From UHGV virus genome UHGV-1488451: DNA of 38,329 bases. One strand, written 5' to 3'. This document shows positions 1,161-38,329 of the stretch, piece by piece. The notes under the pieces were generated by a model, which saw only the letters and a list, made by a program, of their open reading frames with translations, was not told the DNA's origin and did not search any database. The position numbers were made by a program, and so were the translations under genes. Source of the stretch: a virus. Numbering within the stretch: the stretch's first letter is position 1; each line of letters begins with the position of its first letter.

Positions 1161-1535
1161 ATGAGACACAAAGACTGGGTAGAAAACCTTATTGGCCCCG
1201 ACTCCATGCGCACAGCAGCAGCCAAACTTGGCCTATCCCCCGGCGCAGTGTCCCAGCAGATTAGCCGTGGAAGTTTGAAGCCAGACATGGTGATCGCGCT
1301 TTGCCGCGCTTATGGGCGGTCACCGATTGATGGGCTTGTAGAGACCGGGTTTCTTGAGCGGTTCGAGGCGGGCGCAGCTAGCCCTGCTTCGGCGCTTAGG
1401 GAGGCGACGAATCAGCAGATTCTTGGTGAGATTATGCGGCGTTCCGATGCTGATGCGGTGCGGCTATTTAGGGCTGAGGATGAGGATGTGGCGGTGTCGT
1501 CGCAGGTGAGGGCGGATGGTCCTTACAGTGATTGA
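1161..1535 (+). CDS. Immunity repressor-like HTH DNA-binding protein
   Basis: 124 aa with the HTH-like segment MRTAAAKLGLSPGAVSQQISRGSLKPDMVIALCRAYG. It is divergent from the early array and upstream of the xis/int module. A possible TTGCAT-18-TACGCT promoter would make the mRNA leaderless, which is speculative. Confidence 0.65.
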   Translation: MRHKDWVENLIGPDSMRTAAAKLGLSPGAVSQQISRGSLKPDMVIALCRAYGRSPIDGLVETGFLERFEAGAASPASALREATNQQILGEIMRRSDADAVRLFRAEDEDVAVSSQVRADGPYSD

Positions 1536-1577
1536 CTGTAGTTACCCCTTTATTGGTGGGGTTGCTGAACTGCCATC

Positions 1578-1606
1578 TTGTTAATTGCAGAGTGGCGCTG
1601 TAATAT
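1578..1606 (+). promoter_or_regulatory. Near-consensus promoter TTGTTA-17 nt-TAATAT upstream of the moron-like cassette
   Basis: ttgtta lies at 1578-1583, a 17-nt spacer follows, and taatat lies at 1601-1606. The element sits in a locally AT-rich patch after the repressor stop. Confidence 0.5.
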
Positions 1607-1664
1607 AAATCTTGTAAGGCAAACAAGCCTCACGCCCACCTCAAACCCGAAAGGACCAAGACCA

Positions 1665-3010: not shown

Positions 3011-4135
3011 ATGGCATCAATCAAACGATATGACACCGCCAAAGGAACAAAATGGCGCGTCCAATACCGCACCCCAGACGGCAAAAGCCGCACCAAAACC
3101 GGATTCCGCACCAAAAGCGAAGCCGAAAGATGGGTGGCCACACACACCACCTCCATCATCAATGGCACCTGGGTTGACCCCAACGCAGGCAACATAACCA
3201 TCCAGGCCCTCGGCACACGATGGATGGAAACCCGCACCCACCTGAAACCCTCAACAGCACGCGTCGAAGCCCTCGACTACAAAAACCACGTCCTCCCACA
3301 CTGGGGGCACCGGCGCATCAAAACTATCAAACCGTCGGAAGTGCAAGCCTGGGTGTCAGCCAGCGCCCAATCACCCTCAACCACCAGGCACCACCATGCG
3401 ATCTTGTCGAAGATTCTAGACATGGCCGTCCTCGACAACCTCATACCCGCGAACCCGGCTAAAAGCGTCACCCTGCCCCGCAAGAACAACCCAACAAAGG
3501 TGTACCTCACCATCAGCCAATTGAAGCGCCTAGCGGACGAGGCAACGGTTCGGGGTGAGCTGATCTGGCTGTTGGGAACCACTGGCCTTAGGTGGGGTGA
3601 GGCCGCTGGCTTGCAGGCGCAAGACTTGGACCCGCTGAACGGGCGCATCAGGGTGGCGAGGAACGCAGTAACGGTAGGGGGCGAGGTGGTTGTCGGAACC
3701 CCGAAAACTCATGAGCGGCGCACAGTGGCTTGCCCTGGGCATGTGATGGGGATGCTTGAAGATGCGGCACGTGGTAAGCCGCGCACCGGGTGGTTGTGGG
3801 AGTCGCCTGCGGGCGGGCCTATGCGGCTTCCGGGGAAGGGTTCTTTTTTTCATTCGGCGTTGGGGCGCGTGCGCGCCGAAGACCCGTCGTTTCCTTCGTT
3901 GACTATTCATGGTCTTAGGCATGTGGCAGCCGGACTTTTAGTTTCGGCGGGGGCGAATGTGAAGGTGGTGCAAAAGCAGCTTGGACACAAGTCTGCGGCT
4001 ATGACGTTGGATGTGTATGCGGAGTTGTTTGACGATGACTTGGATGCGGTGCGTGGGGCGTTGGATGCTTTGGTGGGTTCTTTGGGGAATGTCGTCAAAT
4101 TGTCGTCAAATCGGGGTTTTGGTGACGCGGTTTAG
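3011..4135 (+). CDS. int: Tyrosine integrase (phage integrase family)
   Basis: 374 aa with an N-terminal SAM-like/arm-binding region (KWRVQYRTPDGKSRTKTGFRTKSEAERW). The C-terminal catalytic motifs are LRWGEA...HGLRHVAAGLL...LGHKSAAMTLDVYAELF. Confidence 0.95.
   Translation: MASIKRYDTAKGTKWRVQYRTPDGKSRTKTGFRTKSEAERWVATHTTSIINGTWVDPNAGNITIQALGTRWMETRTHLKPSTARVEALDYKNHVLPHWGHRRIKTIKPSEVQAWVSASAQSPSTTRHHHAILSKILDMAVLDNLIPANPAKSVTLPRKNNPTKVYLTISQLKRLADEATVRGELIWLLGTTGLRWGEAAGLQAQDLDPLNGRIRVARNAVTVGGEVVVGTPKTHERRTVACPGHVMGMLEDAARGKPRTGWLWESPAGGPMRLPGKGSFFHSALGRVRAEDPSFPSLTIHGLRHVAAGLLVSAGANVKVVQKQLGHKSAAMTLDVYAELFDDDLDAVRGALDALVGSLGNVVKLSSNRGFGDAV
4088..4110 (+). repeat. Arm-type repeat copy 1: aatgtcgtcaaattgtcgtcaaa (two tandem TGTCGTCAAA motifs), inside the int 3' end
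   Basis: Exact 23-bp match to 4298-4320. Confidence 0.85.
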
Positions 4136-16500: not shown

Positions 16501-19500
16501 GTCCCCCAACGCCTGCAAACCGGCCTGCATCAGGTTCCACGTTGGTGTAACAACCGTGTCGAACACCCACTTGATGCCAGCGCCAAGACCGTTCCACACA
16601 GCCTTGATGAACTCGACCATCGGGTTAAACACATTGTTGGCCAGCCATGTGATTCCCGCGATCATTAAATCCCAGGTGGGTTTGATGATCGTGTCCCACG
16701 CGAATCGAATGGCAAGGCTCAGGCCGTCCCACTCGAATTTGATGAAACCGAAAATCGGCATGAGGACGTTGTTCCACATGAAGTTTGCCGCGCCTTGCAG
16801 CAAATCCCACGCGGGTTTAATCACGTTGTCCCAACCAGCTTTGATGCCCCATGACAGGGCTTCCCAGGCCAGCAGCAGCGGTGTCAGCACGATCGTTCCG
16901 ATCAGCGCCAGGCCAAACTTCGCCGCGTACTCCAACGCGTCCCACGCCGGTTTGATCAGCGTGTTCCACGCCCAGGCGATGCCAGCGGAAATAGCATTCC
17001 ACGTGTCACCCAGGAACTGGATACCAACACGCACAGCATCAGCCAAGTAGTTGCCCACCCATTGGATGACCACACCAACCACACTGATTAGCGGGTTGAA
17101 ACCATTGGTGATAATCCACGACAAAATGTTCGTGGCCTGCGACAAAATCCACGCTAATCCCTCAACGGCTTTCACCGCCCCAAGGATTGCGCCCACCACC
17201 ACGCCACCAACAATGATACCGATGGTTTGCAGCACCGGCATCAGCACCGGTTCAAGCAGGTTCCACAGCTGCACAAGCAGATTCCACAAGCCTTGCAGCG
17301 CACCCCACACAGCACCCGTGATCGTCTGGCCAAGACTATTCAAAGTCGTGGCCAAGGTCGTGACAGTGTTCCACAGGCTCGTGAAAGTGCCACTCAGCGA
17401 ATCCACAATTATGCCGCGAATCCACTCCATTGCATTACCGACGGTGGTGAAAGCATCAGCAATCATCTGCGCTTTGTCCGCGCCGAAAAGGGCGGTCAGC
17501 CCGCCGATGCCAGCATCATCGCCCTGGAACGCGGCGAACAGCTCACCAATGGATGCCTTCACATTCTGGAACGCAACGCCCATGCGCTCAGCAAAATCAA
17601 CAATCGCCTGGGCTTTATCAGCCCCGAAGATCGCCATGAGGCCACCAAACCCGGCGTCGCCGCCGTTGAAAGCCTCAGTGATTTCACCCCACGCGGCTTT
17701 CAGGTTGCTGAACAGAGTGAACACCGGCTGTAGGGCTTGCCCCATGAAGCTGGTGAACTCGCCCCAAATCCGCTTGCCCGTCTCGGTCTTCGTGAAGAAC
17801 AAGACCAGGGCACCAACAACGGCGGCTATGCCAGCGACAATCAAGCCTATGGGGTTGATCAGCATGGCTGTGTTCAAGCCCATTTGTGCGGCCGTGGCCT
17901 GCAAAGTGCCCGCGCGCTGCGCCGCAAGCAGGGCAGGCAAAACTTTCATCTGCGCTGCAAACGAACTAATCGCAGACACCGCAAACAAACCAGCCTGCGC
18001 CGCCCGCAAAGCAGCCATGCCAGCAACAACACCACCAACAGCGCCGCCAATAACAACCAGCAAATCCTTATTGCGGCCCAGCCACTCAGCCACAGCAGGA
18101 AGCTGATTAGTCAACGCGCCAATGGAGTTCCCCAGACGATCACCCCACGCCGAAAGCGTAGGCTCAGCCAAGGCGTACAGCTGCAGCTGCAAATCATCAA
18201 TCGCGTTTCCGATACGGTCCATCACACCATTCAGGCCAGCGAGCTTAGCCCCCGCAGTTTCACCAGCGGAGCCTTGCCGGTCGAGAGAAGCACGCAGCTT
18301 ATCAAACCCCTCGACACCACTGTTCGCCGCAGTAGTCGCAAACGATACAGCCTCACGCCCAAACGCGGTTGCAGCAGCGGCGGTAAACGCACTCTCACCC
18401 ATGCGGTCCTGCGCGGCCGCCAGCTGCGCGGTGATTTCCCGCATACCCACGAACTTGCCTTGCGCATCGAACGCATTGACACCCATCTCAGCAAGCGCCT
18501 TAGCGCCTTCTTTTGACGGGTTAGTAAGCGACAGCAACGCCGAACGCATCGCCGTACCAGCCTCGGAACCCTTGATGCCAAGGTTGGCGAACAAGCCAAG
18601 ATACGTACTCGCATCCTGCAAAGACACACCCAGAGTGGAGGCAATAGGTGCCGTGTACTTGATGGAGTCGCCTAGCTCAGTCAAGCCTGTAGCACTGTTA
18701 TTAGCGGTGTTAGTCAACACGTCAGCAACAAGTGACGCATCCTTAGCCGCCAGGTGGAAACCATTCAACGCCGCGATCTGAATATCAGCAGCAGTGCCAG
18801 CATCAACCTGAGCAGCACCCGCAAGCTGAATGGAACCCTTTGCCGCGTCCATAGCATCAGACACCGACAAACCACCCTTAGCCAACGCCAGCATCGCATC
18901 AGTAGCAGATGCGGCACTAGTGCCAGCCAGGGTTTCATCGTTGCCAAGGTCGCGGGCACGCTGCGACACCATCTTCATAGTGTCCCCAGTCGAACCCGTC
19001 ACAGCCTGCAACGACCCCATCACCTGCGACAGCTCACGGCCTTTACCAATGGCATCACCAAAAAACGCGGCACCACCAGCAACACCAAGACCACCAGCAA
19101 TAACCCCACCAAGACGACCAACCGTCCCCACAAGGGAACTAATCTTCCCGCCCACACTATCCACATCACCAGAAAGGCTCAGCGCCCAAGCCTTCGACTT
19201 CTCAGCCGCGCCAGTGAACGTGAAACCAGTCTTCTTAACCTGGTCCCCAACATGCCCAGCAGCCTCAGCAGCCTTACGCTGCGACGCTGCGGCGTCCTCC
19301 ATTGTGGCCTTGTACAGTTTCTCCTTGGCGCTCACCTGGTCGTTGGCGTTCGCTAAATCAACCTTAGCTTTCTTAAGCTCCCCCTCCGACTTCACCAAAG
19401 CAAGTGACGCACGGTCAGACTGGCGTTTAGCAGTCTCTAGCTCACGCTCCGCGCGCTGAACCTCCTTCGAGTCAGCGTCATTAGCGTTACGCGCGTCCTG

Positions 19501-28943: not shown

Positions 28944-29232
28944 CGGCCGCCTTCATACGCTCCATCACCGAAACAACCGCCACAGGGCGGTCACGGTCCT
29001 CAGGAATTCCCCGCGCCTCCGGCGTGCACCCCAACGCCCCCAACGCCTTCAACAAATGAGGCCCCAAATACAACGCCTTTGTGCGGTCATACCCAGCATC
29101 AACAGGCACGAAATCAATCTGCCGAGCATACGACAGCGCCAGCTCCTGCAATGCCTTATCTGCACCGGTGACGTTCTCGCCACGCGCCTCAATTGAATCA
29201 AGTACAGCCTGTTCAAGCGGCCCAACAGTCAT
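28924..29232 (-). CDS. terS: Terminase small subunit (position-based)
   Basis: 102 aa from ATG 29232 (SD ggaaggag). It overlaps the terL start by 20 nt. The track start at 29319 lacks an SD. Confidence 0.7.
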   Translation of the reverse strand: MTVGPLEQAVLDSIEARGENVTGADKALQELALSYARQIDFVPVDAGYDRTKALYLGPHLLKALGALGCTPEARGIPEDRDRPVAVVSVMERMKAAGGGRAG

Positions 29233-29364
29233 GATTAAAGCTCCTTCCAGAAACCAGGTCTTGCGCGCGCGATACCCCCAAAAACGAGTGGGGGGAGAGG
29301 ACAGGCCCACCCGGCTCAAATGTCCTGGTCAGGTGTGCTGGTGATTTGCTACCCCCTACCGTTG

Positions 29365-29649
29365 TTACCAGGTTTGGCTGGGTTGTCCGAGGGTTGGTTG
29401 GGGTGGTTGGTTGTGGCGTGCGCGGTTGCAGTTGGTGTGTGTTGGTTTGATGTTGTTGGGGTCGTTTTCGAGGTGTGGGTGTGTGCTTGTGGGGTGGATG
29501 TGGTCGAGGTCGCATGCGTTTGGGGTGTGTGGTGGTGCGGTGTAGTCGATTGGTTGGCCGCAGAGGTAGCAGGGGGTGTTGTTTTCTGCGTGTTGTTGGC
29601 GGAGTTGTTGGCGGAGTTTTTTGTTTGCGCGGGTTTCTTTGAATGGCAT
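29365..29649 (-). CDS. HNH endonuclease (terminase-associated type)
   Basis: 94 aa with CYLCGQPI...DLDHIHP...NIKPTHTNCN. It lies adjacent to the terminase genes, as in cos-type HK97-like phages. Confidence 0.88.
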   Translation of the reverse strand: MPFKETRANKKLRQQLRQQHAENNTPCYLCGQPIDYTAPPHTPNACDLDHIHPTSTHPHLENDPNNIKPTHTNCNRARHNQPPQPTLGQPSQTW

Positions 29650-29669
29650 GGGGTTTTGGGGGTTGATAT

Positions 29670-29700
29670 GGGTAAACCCCCATGCTTTTTGGCATGGGGG
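29670..29700 (-). terminator. Rho-independent terminator separating the early/middle genes from the HNH-terminase late block
   Basis: The minus strand reads cccccatgc-caaaaa-gcatggggg followed by tttaccc. The stem is 9 bp. Confidence 0.7.
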
Positions 29701-29740
29701 TTGTCTGCGACTGAGTTTAGCAGTGTGGTTGCCCGTTTTG

Positions 29741-30310
29741 TCAATGTGACAGTTTTTTATCTATGTCTGTTTGTGAGTATTTGAGTGTGCCGTCGAGGCT
29801 GTGGTGTGCTCTGATGTGTCCTCGTGCTCTCCAGTGGTGGATTTGTTTGCGGGTGATGTTGTGGCCTTGTTGCCATGCGTGGTCGATGGCTTGTTGGATG
29901 GTGAGCCATTGGCCGTGGGGGTTGATGGGTGGTTCGCGGTGGTGGCGTTGGGTGAGGTCTTGTTCGATGGTGCGTAGTCCTTGTTCGATGGTGTCGGGTT
30001 CGGGGTGGTGGTTGATGAGGTGGGTGTTGTGGCTGAGCCAGGTGCACCAGCGTGAGAGTGGTTGGTTGGCTGCGCTGGCTGGGAGGTGGATGTTTGCGTG
30101 TTTGAGGATTTGGTGGATGATGTCGCGGAGTTCGTCTTCGGTGGTGATTTTGTTTTCGAGTTGGGTGAGGTTGAGGGGTGGGCGTGGTCCGGGGGTGGTG
30201 TGGCCTCCTTCTTTGGGGATGGTGGAGTCGATGTGTGTGGGGTGGAGGTCGGTTTCGAGTTCGTGGGTGAGGGTGGCGAGGTTGGTGAGGATTTTGTTGA
30301 TGGTGATCAT
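29741..30310 (-). CDS. Hypothetical protein with C-terminal MerR/excisionase-type HTH
   Basis: 189 aa. The C-terminus WLTIQQAIDHAWQQGHNITRKQIHHWRARGHI...YSQTDI fits HTH_17-like proteins. The composition is His/Thr/Pro-rich. Confidence 0.6.
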   Translation of the reverse strand: MITINKILTNLATLTHELETDLHPTHIDSTIPKEGGHTTPGPRPPLNLTQLENKITTEDELRDIIHQILKHANIHLPASAANQPLSRWCTWLSHNTHLINHHPEPDTIEQGLRTIEQDLTQRHHREPPINPHGQWLTIQQAIDHAWQQGHNITRKQIHHWRARGHIRAHHSLDGTLKYSQTDIDKKLSH

Positions 30311-30558
30311 GGTTTGGGTTCTTGGAGTTCTTTGGTGGCTTTGGTGGTGAGGATGATGGAGCCGTAGGTGTCGAAGGCTAGGTATCCGTGGTCGATGAGG
30401 ATGTTGGTCATGGTGTGGTTGATGCGTTTGCCGGAGGCGAAGCGTCGGAGGGCGTTGATGTGGTTGGGGGTCATTGGTTTGTGTCTTTCTTGGTGGTGAG
30501 GTGGGTGATTGTTCCGGGGTGGGTGAGGGTGCTTATGGCGGTGGTGATGATGATGCAC
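30307..30558 (-). CDS. Small hypothetical protein (start uncertain: 30558 or 30474)
   Basis: The 83-aa ORF has a first 28 aa (MHHHHHRHKHPHPP...) that may be untranslated leader. The ATG at 30474 gives a 55-aa product. Confidence 0.5.
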   Translation of the reverse strand: MHHHHHRHKHPHPPRNNHPPHHQERHKPMTPNHINALRRFASGKRINHTMTNILIDHGYLAFDTYGSIILTTKATKELQEPKP

Positions 30559-30574
30559 GCGATGATGGTGAGGG

Positions 30575-31108
30575 TCATTGTTCGTCTTTCTGGATTTCGT
30601 ATCGTTCTTCTTGGTGGTCGCGTTCGAGCCTGTCTGCGCGTTCCCAGTCTGGGAGGGTGTCGTCGTTGGTGTCGTCGTGGGGGTAGGGGTGTGCCATGTG
30701 GGTTTCTTTCTGGGTGAGGTGGATGTGTGCGCCGGGTGTTTCGCCGGGGTGTGCGTAGCGTTTGTGGGTTATCCAGGTTGTGATTTGGCTGTCGTCGTTG
30801 ATTGCTCCTGATTGGGTGAGGGCGTCGCCGAGGGCGCGTTGTAGTTTGTCGAGGTCGGGGGTTTTGGTGTGTGGTTCGGTTTTGTTTTTGAGGCGTTTGG
30901 GGCGGGGGAAGATGAAGATTGCGGTGATGGTGATTGGTCCTTGGATTGGGGGTTTGTGGTTGTGGGTGAGGGTTGCGGTTTGGGTGAGGGCTTTGCGCCA
31001 GGCGGGTAGGTGTTTGCTGGATTCGATACTGCGGCCGCCGCCGATGTAGCGTTTGGAGCCTTGGGGTCTGGGGGTGCCTGGGGTGAAGAATGTGAGCGTT
31101 TGGGTCAT
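30575..31108 (-). CDS. rusA: RusA-family Holliday junction resolvase
   Basis: 177 aa with FFTPGTPRPQGSKR...PDLDKLQRALGDALTQSGAINDDSQI, typical RusA motifs. Confidence 0.88.
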   Translation of the reverse strand: MTQTLTFFTPGTPRPQGSKRYIGGGRSIESSKHLPAWRKALTQTATLTHNHKPPIQGPITITAIFIFPRPKRLKNKTEPHTKTPDLDKLQRALGDALTQSGAINDDSQITTWITHKRYAHPGETPGAHIHLTQKETHMAHPYPHDDTNDDTLPDWERADRLERDHQEERYEIQKDEQ

Positions 31109-31238
31109 TGGAACATGCTTTCTATGTGGGGGTGGTGGTTTGTTTTGGGTTGGGGGTGGGTGTTATTTTCGCGCGTGAGGCTTGGGGCGGGTTGGTGGCG
31201 CCTGGTGGCCTGTTGGGCGGAGCGTGGTCACAACAGTC

Positions 31239-32378
31239 TCAAAACGGGGGTTTTGCGGCGTTGGAATTGCCGAACCATACACGACTACCCGCCGAGGGGT
31301 TTTCGGGCGTGTGAGGCGGCAATGAGGGCGGATTTGGGGCATTCTCGTTTCGTCTGGCCGCCCGGAGTTGAGCGTATTCCGGTGGGAGGTCCACCGGCTC
31401 GGGGGGTGTCCGATGGTCGCATTTGCGGGCTACGCTGCGGTTTTCCGGCGAATCCGGGTCGATTCCTCGGGTCGGGACCAGGACAAAACCCCGCTCGTCG
31501 CACCACGGGCAAGCGTCGATTTCGGCGCGTCGTGCCTGCTTGGCTTGGGTTTTCTGGTCCTGGAACCAGCGTCTGGCGGCTGCGCAGGCCCCGCAGGGTG
31601 GCACCTGGTCGCGTGGCAGCCCGGCGTGTTCGCGGCATCGGGGGTCATCCGGCGTGGACCAATCGGCGGGTGTGTCGCCGGTCACGGTTGGGGTGTTGGG
31701 GGGCGGCGCGTCAGCGGCCGCCGAACCCTGGTCGAAACTCGGGGCGGGGGCGTGTGCGCTTGCGCTCTCGCTCGGAAGATTTTCTCTCTTAAGCTCCCCT
31801 TTATTGGTATTGGTCGGGCGCAGGTCCGGGCGCGCGCGTCGCGCGCGAGGAGTGGACATGCGGGTGGCGTCCGGGGTGGACATTTCGGCGTTTTCGCTGG
31901 TAGAGGAAAAATCGCTCGACCTATTCGGATTCATTTCGTTTTCATTTCGATTTCGATTCGCGTTCGATTCGGATTCATTTCGATTTCGATTCGGATTCAT
32001 TTCGCGTTCGGATAGGTCGAGCCTCCCTGTTTCAGTATCGGCGTTGCAGCCCCTCCTGCGGGCCTTTGACTCGCGTTCAATACGGCGTCGATTCGAGCGT
32101 TGTTCGCGGGTCTGCTGATAGTCCCCCCAGTCCCTAAAAGTGAACACGATCACACCATTTTCATTGACTGATTGCGTCCACAACCCCGCATCAACAAGCG
32201 CCTGAATCTGAACCGCGCTCCCCCGCAAAGCCCGCACCTGCTGACGAGGAATCACCCCATCAGTCTCAAATTCAGCGCACCAACTCCCAGCCTTCGCCCA
32301 TAAACCCACCGCAGCATTAGGAAGGGAGGAAATCTTAGGATGCGCATGAAAACGGTCGTCAATCATGAACCAGCTCAT
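31239..32378 (-). CDS. Putative replication initiator / DNA-binding protein with internal iteron-encoding low-complexity linker and Cys-rich C-terminus
   Basis: About 379 aa from ATG 32378 (MSWFMIDDRFHAHPK...GLWAKAGSWCAE... wHTH-like N-terminus). The linker is NPNRNRNESESNANRNRNENEMNPNR, and the C-terminus carries CGAC...CPWC motifs. Confidence 0.65.
   Translation of the reverse strand: MSWFMIDDRFHAHPKISSLPNAAVGLWAKAGSWCAEFETDGVIPRQQVRALRGSAVQIQALVDAGLWTQSVNENGVIVFTFRDWGDYQQTREQRSNRRRIERESKARRRGCNADTETGRLDLSEREMNPNRNRNESESNANRNRNENEMNPNRSSDFSSTSENAEMSTPDATRMSTPRARRARPDLRPTNTNKGELKRENLPSESASAHAPAPSFDQGSAAADAPPPNTPTVTGDTPADWSTPDDPRCREHAGLPRDQVPPCGACAAARRWFQDQKTQAKQARRAEIDACPWCDERGFVLVPTRGIDPDSPENRSVARKCDHRTPPEPVDLPPEYAQLRAARRNENAPNPPSLPPHTPENPSAGSRVWFGNSNAAKPPF
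31923..32010. repeat. Iteron-like repeats with 22-bp phasing (candidate origin of replication inside the replication gene)
   Basis: The 16-mer attcggattcatttcg occurs at 31923, 31967 and 31989 (spacing 44 and 22 nt). Degenerate copies and two cgcgttcg motifs lie between them. Confidence 0.6.
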
Positions 32379-32540
32379 TACGCACCGAGTCCAACATTCA
32401 AGCAGACAACACTGATTGACCTGCACGTTTCCTTATCCAGGAACAAGCCGTACCGGCGAACAGCGAAAATGGCGATGCCTTGCGGCGTGAACAAATTCAC
32501 CCATTCAGGTTTCGGGGCATTCATTTCCCTTATCTTTCAT

Positions 32541-37727: not shown

Positions 37728-38329
37728 TGGCTTCTCCTTTGTCTTCCTTCTCTGGTTTCCATGATTCGGCGCGAATGGCGATCATGTCGTGGATTGCTTG
37801 GTATTCGGCTTGCCAGCGTTCTTGTGTGGCTTCGTCGTGGCGCTTCCAGTAGTTGGCGCGGCGTTCGGCGACGGCTTGCATCATTGTGGTTAGGGTGCCT
37901 TCCCAGCATCCGATGCAGACGAATATTTCATCGGTTCCGGTGTGCGCCGCAGTTACCCAGCGGCTTTCTACTCCTGCAGGGCCAGCAACGAAGATGTGTT
38001 GTTTTTGGAACACCTCCGCGTTGCCGGACACCCGCGCGTTGCCGGACACCCACGCGTTGCCGGACACCCGCGCGTTGCCGGACACCCACGCGTTGCCGGA
38101 CACCCGCGCGTCGCCGGACACCCACGCGTTGCCGGACACCCACGCGTCGCCGGACACCCACGCGTCGCCGAACACCCACGCGTCGCCGAACACCCGCGCG
38201 TCGCCGGACACCCACGCGTTGCCGGACACCCACGCGTCGCCGAACACCCGCGCGTCGCCGGACACCCACGCGTTGCCGGACAAGTTCGATTCCTTTTCAA
38301 TGAAACCGCCGAGTTCGCCTTTATCCACA
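37699..38329 (-). CDS. Hexapeptide-repeat (beta-solenoid-like) protein of unknown function, 3' portion; the 5' end lies across the window wrap
   Basis: This is a 209-aa ORF running off the window edge. It has the lead-in DKGELGGFIEKESNLS, then 15 hexapeptide repeats, then a non-repeat C-terminal domain with a CIGCW motif. This repeat architecture with an N-terminal YRLTDETI...LYRI lead-in recurs in phage proteins usually annotated as hypothetical or polymer-forming; that statement is from recall, not a search. Confidence 0.8.
   Translation of the reverse strand, partial: VDKGELGGFIEKESNLSGNAWVSGDARVFGDAWVSGNAWVSGDARVFGDAWVFGDAWVSGDAWVSGNAWVSGDARVSGNAWVSGNARVSGNAWVSGNARVSGNAEVFQKQHIFVAGPAGVESRWVTAAHTGTDEIFVCIGCWEGTLTTMMQAVAERRANYWKRHDEATQERWQAEYQAIHDMIAIRAESWKPEKEDKGEANDSDDNDRA
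38008..38277 (-). repeat. 15 x 18-bp head-to-tail tandem repeat array, in-frame coding (hexapeptide G-D/N-A-W/R-V-S/F)
   Basis: The plus-strand unit is ggacacccacgcgtcgcc. 14 of 15 units differ only at unit positions 2 (g/a), 9 (a/g) and 15 (c/t). The last unit, gaacacctccgcgttgcc, encodes GNAEVF. Confidence 0.95.
38206..38329. repeat. Right copy of imperfect terminal direct repeat
   Basis: Counterpart of nt 1-124. The mismatches fall only at the variable positions of the 18-bp repeat unit. Confidence 0.9.

Follow-up and report, generated by a model that had tools for sequence, protein, structure and literature searches.

The closest described counterparts of the locus analyzed here are the packaging module of phage HK97, in which the HNH protein gp74 acts with terminase at cos, and the cohesive-end sites of phages BFK20 and phi673/674. 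An HNH gene adjoining cos and the terminase genes is a documented and recognized arrangement (PMC3592412, PMC9410871). The phi673/674 overhang, AGAAGGGGGCGGA-3', was found by run-off sequencing (PMC6132909), and the BFK20 record annotates a 13-nt 3'-protruding cos, TGAAGGGGGCGAA, 80 nt past the HNH stop. Here, the corresponding region was analyzed in the UHGV virus genome UHGV-1488451 (38,329 nt; this whole stretch is hereafter called the window), in which the noncoding gap between the genes for an HNH endonuclease and the small terminase subunit (terS) coincides with the sharpest flip in strand composition and is predicted to hold cos. Bases 1-124 of the window match 38206-38329 (98% identity), giving a unique length of 38,205 and indicating a circularly closed assembly, and the minus strand carries almost all genes. 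HNH lies directly upstream of terS and of the gene for the large terminase subunit (terL) on that strand, as a preliminary description made from the sequence alone had correctly called them (Table 1), and is followed downstream of terL by a portal (PF04860, E 8e-74), an S78 protease (PF04586, E 5e-37) and a capsid protein (PF05065, E 6e-39). Judged by these family matches, the head module is HK97-like, with portal, S78-type prohead protease and HK97-fold major capsid protein in the expected order. The arrangement HNH, cos, terS, terL, portal, S78 protease, HK97-fold capsid is that of HK97, although HK97 is enterobacterial and its proteins are just distantly related.

A probable cos of the BFK20 and phi673/674 kind was recognized in the gap by position and by alignment. 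In those phages, too, cos lies between HNH (45-52% identical) and terS. Read in gene orientation, the gap runs ...ACGGTAGGGGG...GGACATT/TGAGCCGGGTGGG/CCTGT CCTCTCCCCCCAC...ATCGCGCGCGC..., with slashes bounding the predicted overhang, and the boxes ACGGTAGGGGG, ATT/TGA..., CCTCTCCCCCCAC and ATCGCGCGCGC are common to it and BFK20/phi673. Compared with BFK20 and phi673/674 together, the likeness consists of ACGGTAGGGGG, CC(T/G)CTC(C/T)CCCCAC, ATCGCGCGCGC and a G-rich overhang starting (T/A)GA, while the overhang as a whole differs (TGAGCCGGGTGGG predicted here; TGAAGGGGGCGAA and AGAAGGGGGCGGA there). Directly past the mapped overhangs, phi673 reads ACTCT-CCTCTCCCCCCAC and BFK20 ACTTT-CCGCTCTCCCCAC. 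Nicks are accordingly predicted between 29318 and 29319 on the plus strand and, if the overhang is 13 nt, between 29306 and 29305 on the minus strand, and the ATCGCGCGCGC box is a candidate terS-binding (cosB-like) element. A search with this HNH matched 292 phage records; nearly all of the actinophages among them whose ends are determined carry the homologue in last or next-to-last place, 70-400 bp short of the right end. For the window, the prediction is a virion DNA whose first gene is terS, with an ATG at 29232 preceded by GGAAGGAG, and whose final gene is HNH. Folded as single-stranded DNA, the gap was no better than shuffles (z = 0.79); it matched nothing in Rfam, promoter and terminator motifs were not in excess, and its repeats amount to a single 12-nt two-copy repeat.

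Two contig ends fall at the predicted nick. Contig L085, from a phage with an HNH 67% identical, ends ...GGCCAGT and continues into the Illumina adapter AGATCGGAAGAGCGTCGTGTAG; the break aligns with the window at 29319/29318, and the sibling contig L084 reads through. Such an end is the expected product of end repair on a 3' overhang. At the start of contig L003 (terL 99% identical), bases 29288-29318 of the plus strand run into minus-strand sequence beginning at 29297; this is a snap-back with its strand terminus at 29318 and fits a 3' overhang. The two contigs place the left boundary of the overhang; the right boundary, and hence the length, is set by alignment alone. These comparisons, namely the right-end position of HNH, the BFK20/phi673 alignment and the L085 and L003 ends, support the proposal of the preliminary description that the physical ends of the genome coincide with the flip, between HNH and terS, and on sequence grounds cos very probably lies in the gap. 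The predicted cos itself is of an ordinary BFK20/phi673-type, HNH-associated, HK97-like kind.

What sets this cos apart is its strand composition. Over the whole genome, cumulative G+T (keto) skew is lowest at 29,320 and highest at 1,601, and the maximum-likelihood two-segment change point lies at 29,370, where plus-strand G+T rises from 0.43 to 0.78. With flanks of 300, 500, 1000 and 2000 nt, the greatest genome-wide change in G+T was located at 29,327, 29,321, 29,321 and 29,285, respectively (delta 0.36-0.43), as compared to a runner-up elsewhere in the genome of delta 0.23-0.30 at the same flank sizes; the chance of a global extreme within a given 132-bp gap is ~0.35%. The coincidence of the sharpest genome-scale flip with the HNH-terS gap, remarked on previously, is therefore confirmed for all flank sizes between 300 and 2000 nt. 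The A+C-rich plus strand reported across terL and terS (A.26, C.36, G.21, T.17) is confirmed as well. Strong G+T enrichment from ~29,320 had been extended through HNH and the whole early region; it is present after the gap through HNH (A.09, C.13, G.44, T.34), but the extreme skew stops sharply at 31,228, past which G+T is weak (0.52-0.60), reversed at 32.0-32.9 kb and moderate from 33 kb round to 1.6 kb. The accompanying picture of two genome arms holds roughly, with domain boundaries at 29,320 and 1,601, but both domains are heterogeneous. Two points had been missed: the coding strand does not change at the flip, and the true oddity is a discrete block of 1.86 kb (29,370-31,228).

The genes adjoining the flip, terS and HNH, both lie on the minus strand and have family matches; their G+T fractions at the third codon position (GT3) are inverted, with 0.79 in terS and 0.02 in HNH. 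As the genes on either side are all on the minus strand, a change in the direction of transcription was rejected as the cause. The second domain boundary falls between co-oriented plus-strand genes, 1161-1535 (GT3 0.66) and 1665-2000 (GT3 0.26), outside the divergent region 223-1160, a placement that favors a domain of the DNA strand over a rule set by the coding strand alone. To the right of the gap the plus strand is G+T-rich and to the left the minus strand, such that in each arm the strand with its 5' end at cos is the G+T-rich one. Replication origins show this polarity, as do linear genomes in which strand-displacement synthesis proceeds inward from each end. The flip is a regional DNA-level strand bias of opposite sign at the two genome ends, and we hold with good confidence that it reflects an end or junction effect at the DNA level rather than an effect of transcription.

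The bias is most extreme in the four genes and spacers of the block. On the late side, GT3 is 0.79 in terS, 0.74 in terL, 0.78 in the portal gene and 0.72 in the protease gene; on the block side it is 0.02 in HNH and 0.05, 0.14 and 0.06 in the upstream genes g189, g83 and RusA. Codons ending in A or C make up 510 of 543 in the block (94%) and 92 of 94 in HNH, where the exceptions are ATG and TGG, and synonymous sites in the block are ~95% A or C. First and second codon positions are shifted as well: Thr, His, Pro, Gln, Asn and Lys constitute 49% of residues, and not one of 539 block codons encodes valine, for which the chance is ~1e-14 to 1e-21 at ordinary Val frequencies. Among 120 RusA homologues (median 8.4% valine), Val-free proteins occur solely in this lineage. 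Despite the bias, the catalytic motifs of HNH and RusA are retained, including the Cys and His-Asn-His motifs of HNH. Noncoding spacers within the block are skewed like the genes (0.73-0.85), and late genes favor T even in two-fold C/T-ending families (GAT, CAT, TAT, ATT), where C is the usual optimum. The bias thus belongs to the DNA or RNA segment and not to translation, and codon adaptation or translational selection was rejected on these two grounds. The block is more extreme than all 22,168 1-kb windows from 134 related loci, and in the genome profile GC skew reaches up to 0.67 and AT skew down to -0.71. An assembly or sequencing artifact was likewise rejected, as independent samples carry the block at 95-97% identity. 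Palindromes of 4 and 6 nt are rarer in the block than in any other window of the same size, being reduced but not eliminated. No G-quadruplex motifs with runs of three G were present on its G-rich strand, a permissive Rfam search of 28.8-32.6 kb returned a single chance-level match, and sigma-70 promoter and intrinsic-terminator scans gave no excess over shuffles.

Whether the bias is a relic was addressed by a population comparison of 12 aligned sequences (~97% identical). A-to-C and C-to-A transversions account for 47 of the 91 block polymorphisms. Block variants that create G or T are singletons in 24 of 26 cases (18 of 20 when one hairpin-loop inversion is set aside), spread over nine genomes, whereas A/C transversions and variants removing G or T reach intermediate frequency (p = 2e-4, 3e-5). 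The 12 sequences exhibited no such frequency contrast in terS and terL. The bias is maintained in place now and is not a decaying relic, which weakens a reading of the block as purely an imported module. This frequency spectrum indicates a force acting at present, with purifying selection and very fast back-mutation not separated by it. Between the window and contig L083, the block is also less diverged than the DNA upstream of it (20 versus 54 differences per kb).

Similar contrasts were observed in other phages. In IME1320_01, a C. simulans prophage, GT3 rises from 0.09 in HNH to 0.62-0.70, and the global skew minimum at 17,100 falls inside its own 118-bp HNH-terS gap; its second switch coincides with divergent promoters, unlike that of the window. 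In L084, GT3 changes from 0.22-0.23 to 0.74-0.75. A survey of 74 loci with HNH at most 1.5 kb upstream of terL found HNH GT3 below terL GT3 in 44 (by >0.2 in 27); such loci belong to Arthrobacter, Microbacterium, Gordonia and Corynebacterium prophages and to metagenome-assembled genomes, and a large Collinsella group has no flip. RusA homologues far from packaging genes have a GT3 of 0.30-0.52, which speaks for an effect of position. Many actinobacterial prophages have a flip of the same sign but lesser strength; the lytic relatives have none. A literature search on strand-bias flips at cos, or early/late keto-skew contrasts in phages, returned nothing relevant, and we have not found described the variant seen here, a flip at cos with one side saturated and the coding strand unchanged.

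Several systems with strand bias or DNA-end processing offer partial parallels. In vertebrate mitochondrial DNA, the heavy strand is G+T-rich through deamination while single-stranded. The block is alike in that one strand is depleted of C and A and the coding strand is A+C-rich, synonymous sites are near saturation, and the proteins are shifted to Thr, Pro, His, Gln, Asn and Lys; it is unlike in that the bias is stronger and confined to 1.86 kb beside a phage DNA end, and in that a single-stranded intermediate is hypothetical here. Adenovirus and phi29-like phages have linear genomes replicated from both termini by strand displacement, and the strand with its 5' end at the terminus is G+T-rich, as is the case at each end of the genome analyzed here. 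Unlike them, this genome has cohesive ends and an iteron initiator, its switch lies at 72% of genome length and not in the middle, and the sibling-contig gene tables, which cover the whole early region, contain no terminal protein, no protein-primed polymerase and no polymerase family of any kind. In phage lambda, as reported by Stahl and co-workers, Red exonuclease enters at cos, and recombination concentrates at the right end, which terminase does not occupy. The phage here has a YqaJ-type exonuclease, RecT, SSB and RusA, and the extremely biased side of cos is the one that would lack protection by terminase; however, deamination of an exposed 3' tail would give the opposite sign, and the lambda parallel fits only with resynthesis of the degraded 5'-ended strand.

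In the mechanism that we propose, terminase and HNH would introduce staggered nicks leaving the 13-nt 3' overhang 5'-TGAGCCGGGTGGG-3' on the minus strand (29306-29318), and a mutation pressure specific to one strand, anchored at the DNA end, would continue to act. In repeated rounds, the 5'-ended strand would be displaced or resynthesized from the cos nick or packaging cut to approximately the replication-initiator gene. Mutations might arise through error-prone fill-in by a polymerase without proofreading that favors G:T mispairs, or through C-to-T and A-to-G deamination while the strand stays single-stranded for long periods, as happens to the mitochondrial heavy strand. Either route would enrich the 5'-ended strand in G and T, even rare events would swamp normal replication errors, and the inner edge of the block may represent a barrier or priming site near the initiator gene or origin. 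An end-anchored mutational cause of this sort is put forward tentatively, as having somewhat less than an even chance of being correct. The stricter proposal, that cos is the start point of strand-displacement or repair synthesis running from the plus-strand nick (29318/29319) to ~31.2 kb in most infection or packaging cycles, is speculative and would make the replaced strand either a long-lived single-stranded DNA or the product of repeated error-prone fill-in. Two related schemes, deamination of a 3' tail exposed by 5'-to-3' resection and a fork moving from the iteron region toward cos, were rejected, as each predicts the opposite polarity. As a whole, the combination of a cos in the gap, a DNA-level flip and end-anchored mutation pressure is the explanation that we favor, with slightly better than even confidence.

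Several observations weigh against this combined explanation. The inner edge is abrupt and falls within a spacer (31,228), resembling a module junction or transcription-unit boundary more than a distance-dependent decay. The singleton pattern fits purifying selection equally well as hypermutation. The window was assembled as a circle, and the length and polarity of the overhang are themselves inferred. Among isolated phages with mapped ends, the lytic BFK20 and phi673 have no flip (GT3 0.53-0.59 on both sides of cos), and NS-I, Upyo and Vulpecula, the last of which is temperate, have little. HNH alone is strongly biased in IME1320_01 and in several other loci. Blocks with A+C-rich early genes also occur far from terL in Bifidobacteriaceae prophages: at 2500-5500 of L128 (an Alloscardovia metagenome-assembled genome) and 5400-6700 of L102/L080 (a Bifidobacterium imperatoris prophage), coding-strand G+T is 0.25-0.29 at 4-7 kb upstream of terL. 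Lastly, an unrelated Corynebacteriaceae-type phage with a Mu-like portal and no HNH beside terS (L142, 13895-17743; ENA ERZ27280916) shows a GT3 jump at the same early/late junction, from 0.22-0.24 to 0.78-0.80 where its packaging genes begin, and a fixed virion end may thus not be required for a flip.

The L142 flip, which accompanies a different packaging module, would also suit the view that the gap is not cos at all, packaging being headful or the ends lying elsewhere and the flip merely marking the early/late boundary; so would the circular or unit-length assembly of the window and many sibling contigs, with no break at the gap. This view is nevertheless very improbable given the box-for-box homology to two mapped cos sites, the adapter-terminated and fold-back contigs that end at the predicted nick, the right-end position of HNH in nearly all phages with mapped ends, and the HK97-type head genes. 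Replication from an origin is an improbable source of the skew. Were forks to diverge at or near cos and meet near 1.6 kb, with G+T-rich leading strands, the minimum at 29.3 kb would have the right sign for an origin and the maximum at 1.6 kb that for a terminus; in addition, the second switch does not coincide with a switch of transcription, and IME1320_01 shares the layout. But the initiator gene (31239-32426) and iteron-like repeats (31.9-32.0 kb) lie 2.6 kb from the flip, a fork from the iterons toward cos gives the opposite sign in the block, and the skew amplitudes are far above known replication skews; moreover, the arms are very unequal (10.5 versus 27.7 kb), and reversals occur within domains at 32-33 kb and 4-9.5 kb.

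The remaining rivals concern how the block came by its composition. Selection on the transcript or DNA, rather than mutation, might keep the block mRNA free of G and U; such an mRNA, C-rich and unfoldable, could serve as a Rho or RNase E substrate that holds the HNH and RusA nucleases low, or palindromes might be purged from the DNA that enters the cell first. We consider selection of this kind unlikely, though it would account for G/T-creating variants staying singleton while A/C variants drift up, and it accords with the A+C-rich coding strands to which early and lysogeny genes on either strand tend (e.g., 1665-2893 on the plus strand), with the equal contrast at the L142 early/late junction in the absence of an HNH-cos arrangement, with the block being poorest in 4- and 6-mer palindromes among windows of its size, and with two of its four products being nucleases. 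The strength of the bias is implausible for expression tuning (94% A/C-ending codons, all valine lost, spacers equally skewed), palindromes are merely reduced and guarding 1.9 kb would leave the rest of the genome unprotected, the repressor-like gene at 1161-1535 (plus strand) is biased oppositely to its co-oriented neighbors, and no promoter, terminator or RNA motif stands out. Import of the four-gene block from a compositionally different phage lineage, the flip being a recombination junction that chances to adjoin cos, where right and left arms usually meet, is rather unlikely. In its favor, both block edges are sharp, the inner one in a spacer, RusA is located elsewhere in the relatives L084 and L006, HNH and terL identities to relatives are discordant, the block is less diverged from L083, and assemblies frequently break at its edges (L008, L158, L083). 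Set against these are the failure to find a donor, g189 and RusA having no relatives in IMG/VR; the normal composition of the nearest RusA outside the lineage (65% identical); the present maintenance, without relaxation, of the bias; and the same-sign contrast at the same junction in many unrelated lineages. Mosaicism would in any case merely shift the origin of the bias to another phage.

Table 1. Coordinates of predicted genes, cos elements and composition boundaries in the window
Feature	Position	Strand	Basis and remarks
Second domain boundary	1536..1664		Cumulative G+T peak at 1,601
terL, large terminase subunit, 539 amino acids	27324..28943	-	Open reading frame; TerL_ATPase match, borderline; GT3 0.74
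terS, small terminase subunit, 102 amino acids	28924..29232	-	Pfam Terminase_6, E 1e-17; GT3 0.79
HNH-terS intergenic gap, predicted cos region, 132 bp	29233..29364		Alignment to BFK20, phi673, IME1320_01 and L084
ATCGCGCGCGC box, terS side of cos	29263..29273	-	Identical in BFK20 and phi673; palindrome I2
CCTGT-CCTCTCCCCCCAC box, directly after predicted overhang	29288..29305	-	Predicted start of the double-stranded left end
Predicted 13-nt 3'-protruding cohesive end 5'-TGAGCCGGGTGGG-3'	29306..29318	-	Aligned to BFK20 TGAAGGGGGCGAA and phi673/674 AGAAGGGGGCGGA
ACGGTAGGGGG box, just past HNH stop, right-end side of cos	29352..29362	-	BFK20 ACGGTAGGGGG, L084 AGGGTAGGGG, IME1320_01 AAGGGTAGG
HNH endonuclease, 94 amino acids	29365..29649	-	Pfam HNH, E 3e-6; phrog_338, E 1e-23; GT3 0.02
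Extreme-skew block, 1.86 kb (HNH, g189, g83, RusA and spacers)	29370..31228		Change points; 78% G+T on plus strand
GC-rich hairpin between g189 and HNH	29677..29700	-	CCCCCATGC-CAAAAA-GCATGGGGG then TTT; terminator-like
g189, C-terminal helix-turn-helix-like segment	29741..30310	-	phrog_12885, E 5e-22; GT3 0.05
g83, 83-codon open frame	30307..30558	-	Open reading frame; GT3 0.14; 37- and 55-amino-acid genes in other assemblies
RusA-like Holliday-junction resolvase, 177 amino acids, zero valine	30575..31108	-	Pfam RusA, E 1e-14; GT3 0.06
Replication initiation protein, 395 amino acids	31239..32426	-	phrog_2447, E 4e-41; just beyond inner block edge

The composition of the block has side effects on its annotation. 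A sequence made up of only A and C, or of only G and T, has no stop codons, and long antisense open reading frames accordingly run across the block (29320-30717, plus strand); one of them, 29320-29784, would encode 154 amino acids rich in Gly, Val, Trp and Cys. An automatic gene caller chose antisense frames over HNH and g189 in 10 of 10 sibling contigs (L146-L155), so that the bias misleads gene callers and many copies of this phage group probably lack an HNH annotation. The 5' part of g83 (30475-30558) begins with MHHHHHRHKHPHPPRNNHPPHH, and its His-rich N terminus is probably untranslated A/C-rich spacer, a by-product of stop-free sequence; g83 has a relative, in L006, only for its 45-amino-acid C-terminal part. 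For g189, L084 has a positional counterpart of 188 amino acids upstream of HNH. In the population variant L144 the loop of the hairpin at 29677-29700 is inverted (CAAAAA versus TTTTTG), with the appearance of a hairpin-loop flip. Independent assemblies break at or inside the block (L008, L158 and L083; near 31.2 kb, within RusA or 80 nt past HNH), suggesting a coverage drop in skewed DNA or strain variation.

Beyond the inner block edge, 11/22-bp iteron-like tandem repeats at 31923-32010, within the initiator gene and 0.7 kb past the edge, are the probable origin of replication, and genes for SSB, RecT and the YqaJ exonuclease follow. The ~940 bp at 223-1160, between the divergent early operon and the repressor-like gene, are without a called gene; their plus strand is 63% G+T, and they belong to the skew domain of the early region. 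At the circular junction of the assembly (38017-38282 and 1-77) lie ~19 copies of an 18-bp tandem repeat (CGCGTTGCCGGACACCCA), within a minus-strand early gene of ~218 amino acids in which it would encode a hexapeptide repeat; this repeat may be the reason the contig was opened at this place. A tRNA scan found none.

A tyrosine integrase (3011-4135, plus strand) and the repressor-like gene (1161-1535, plus strand) indicate that the phage is temperate; it is an HK97-like siphophage common in human oral metagenomes, from which its sibling contigs originate, and an identical terS protein was found in 361 blocks of the assembly collection, for the most part on contigs of ~38 kb. The host is probably Corynebacterium. 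The nearest named relatives of HNH and RusA belong to Corynebacterium phages and Corynebacteriaceae, and terL is 47-76% identical to that of BFK20, L006 and L084; a search with terL of one genome per GTDB species gave a best match of merely 39% identity and yielded neither a host nor a close prophage.

For a very common human-oral phage, these results provide a concrete prediction of the genome ends. They also identify co-oriented genes 130 bp apart with near-opposite synonymous usage (GT3 0.79 versus 0.02), and HNH and RusA enzymes that appear, with their motifs kept, to function without any valine, for which transcription direction, codon adaptation and ordinary replication skew do not seem to account. 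The recurrent same-sign contrast between HNH and terS could serve as a sequence-only marker of packaging start sites, and, if mutational, the flip could report on DNA-end processing in vivo. Should cos prove to be the start point of displacement or repair synthesis, the block would be a phage counterpart of mitochondrial heavy-strand asymmetry, erasing valine from four proteins, and the strand-bias flip would allow packaging cut sites of temperate actinophages to be predicted from sequence alone.

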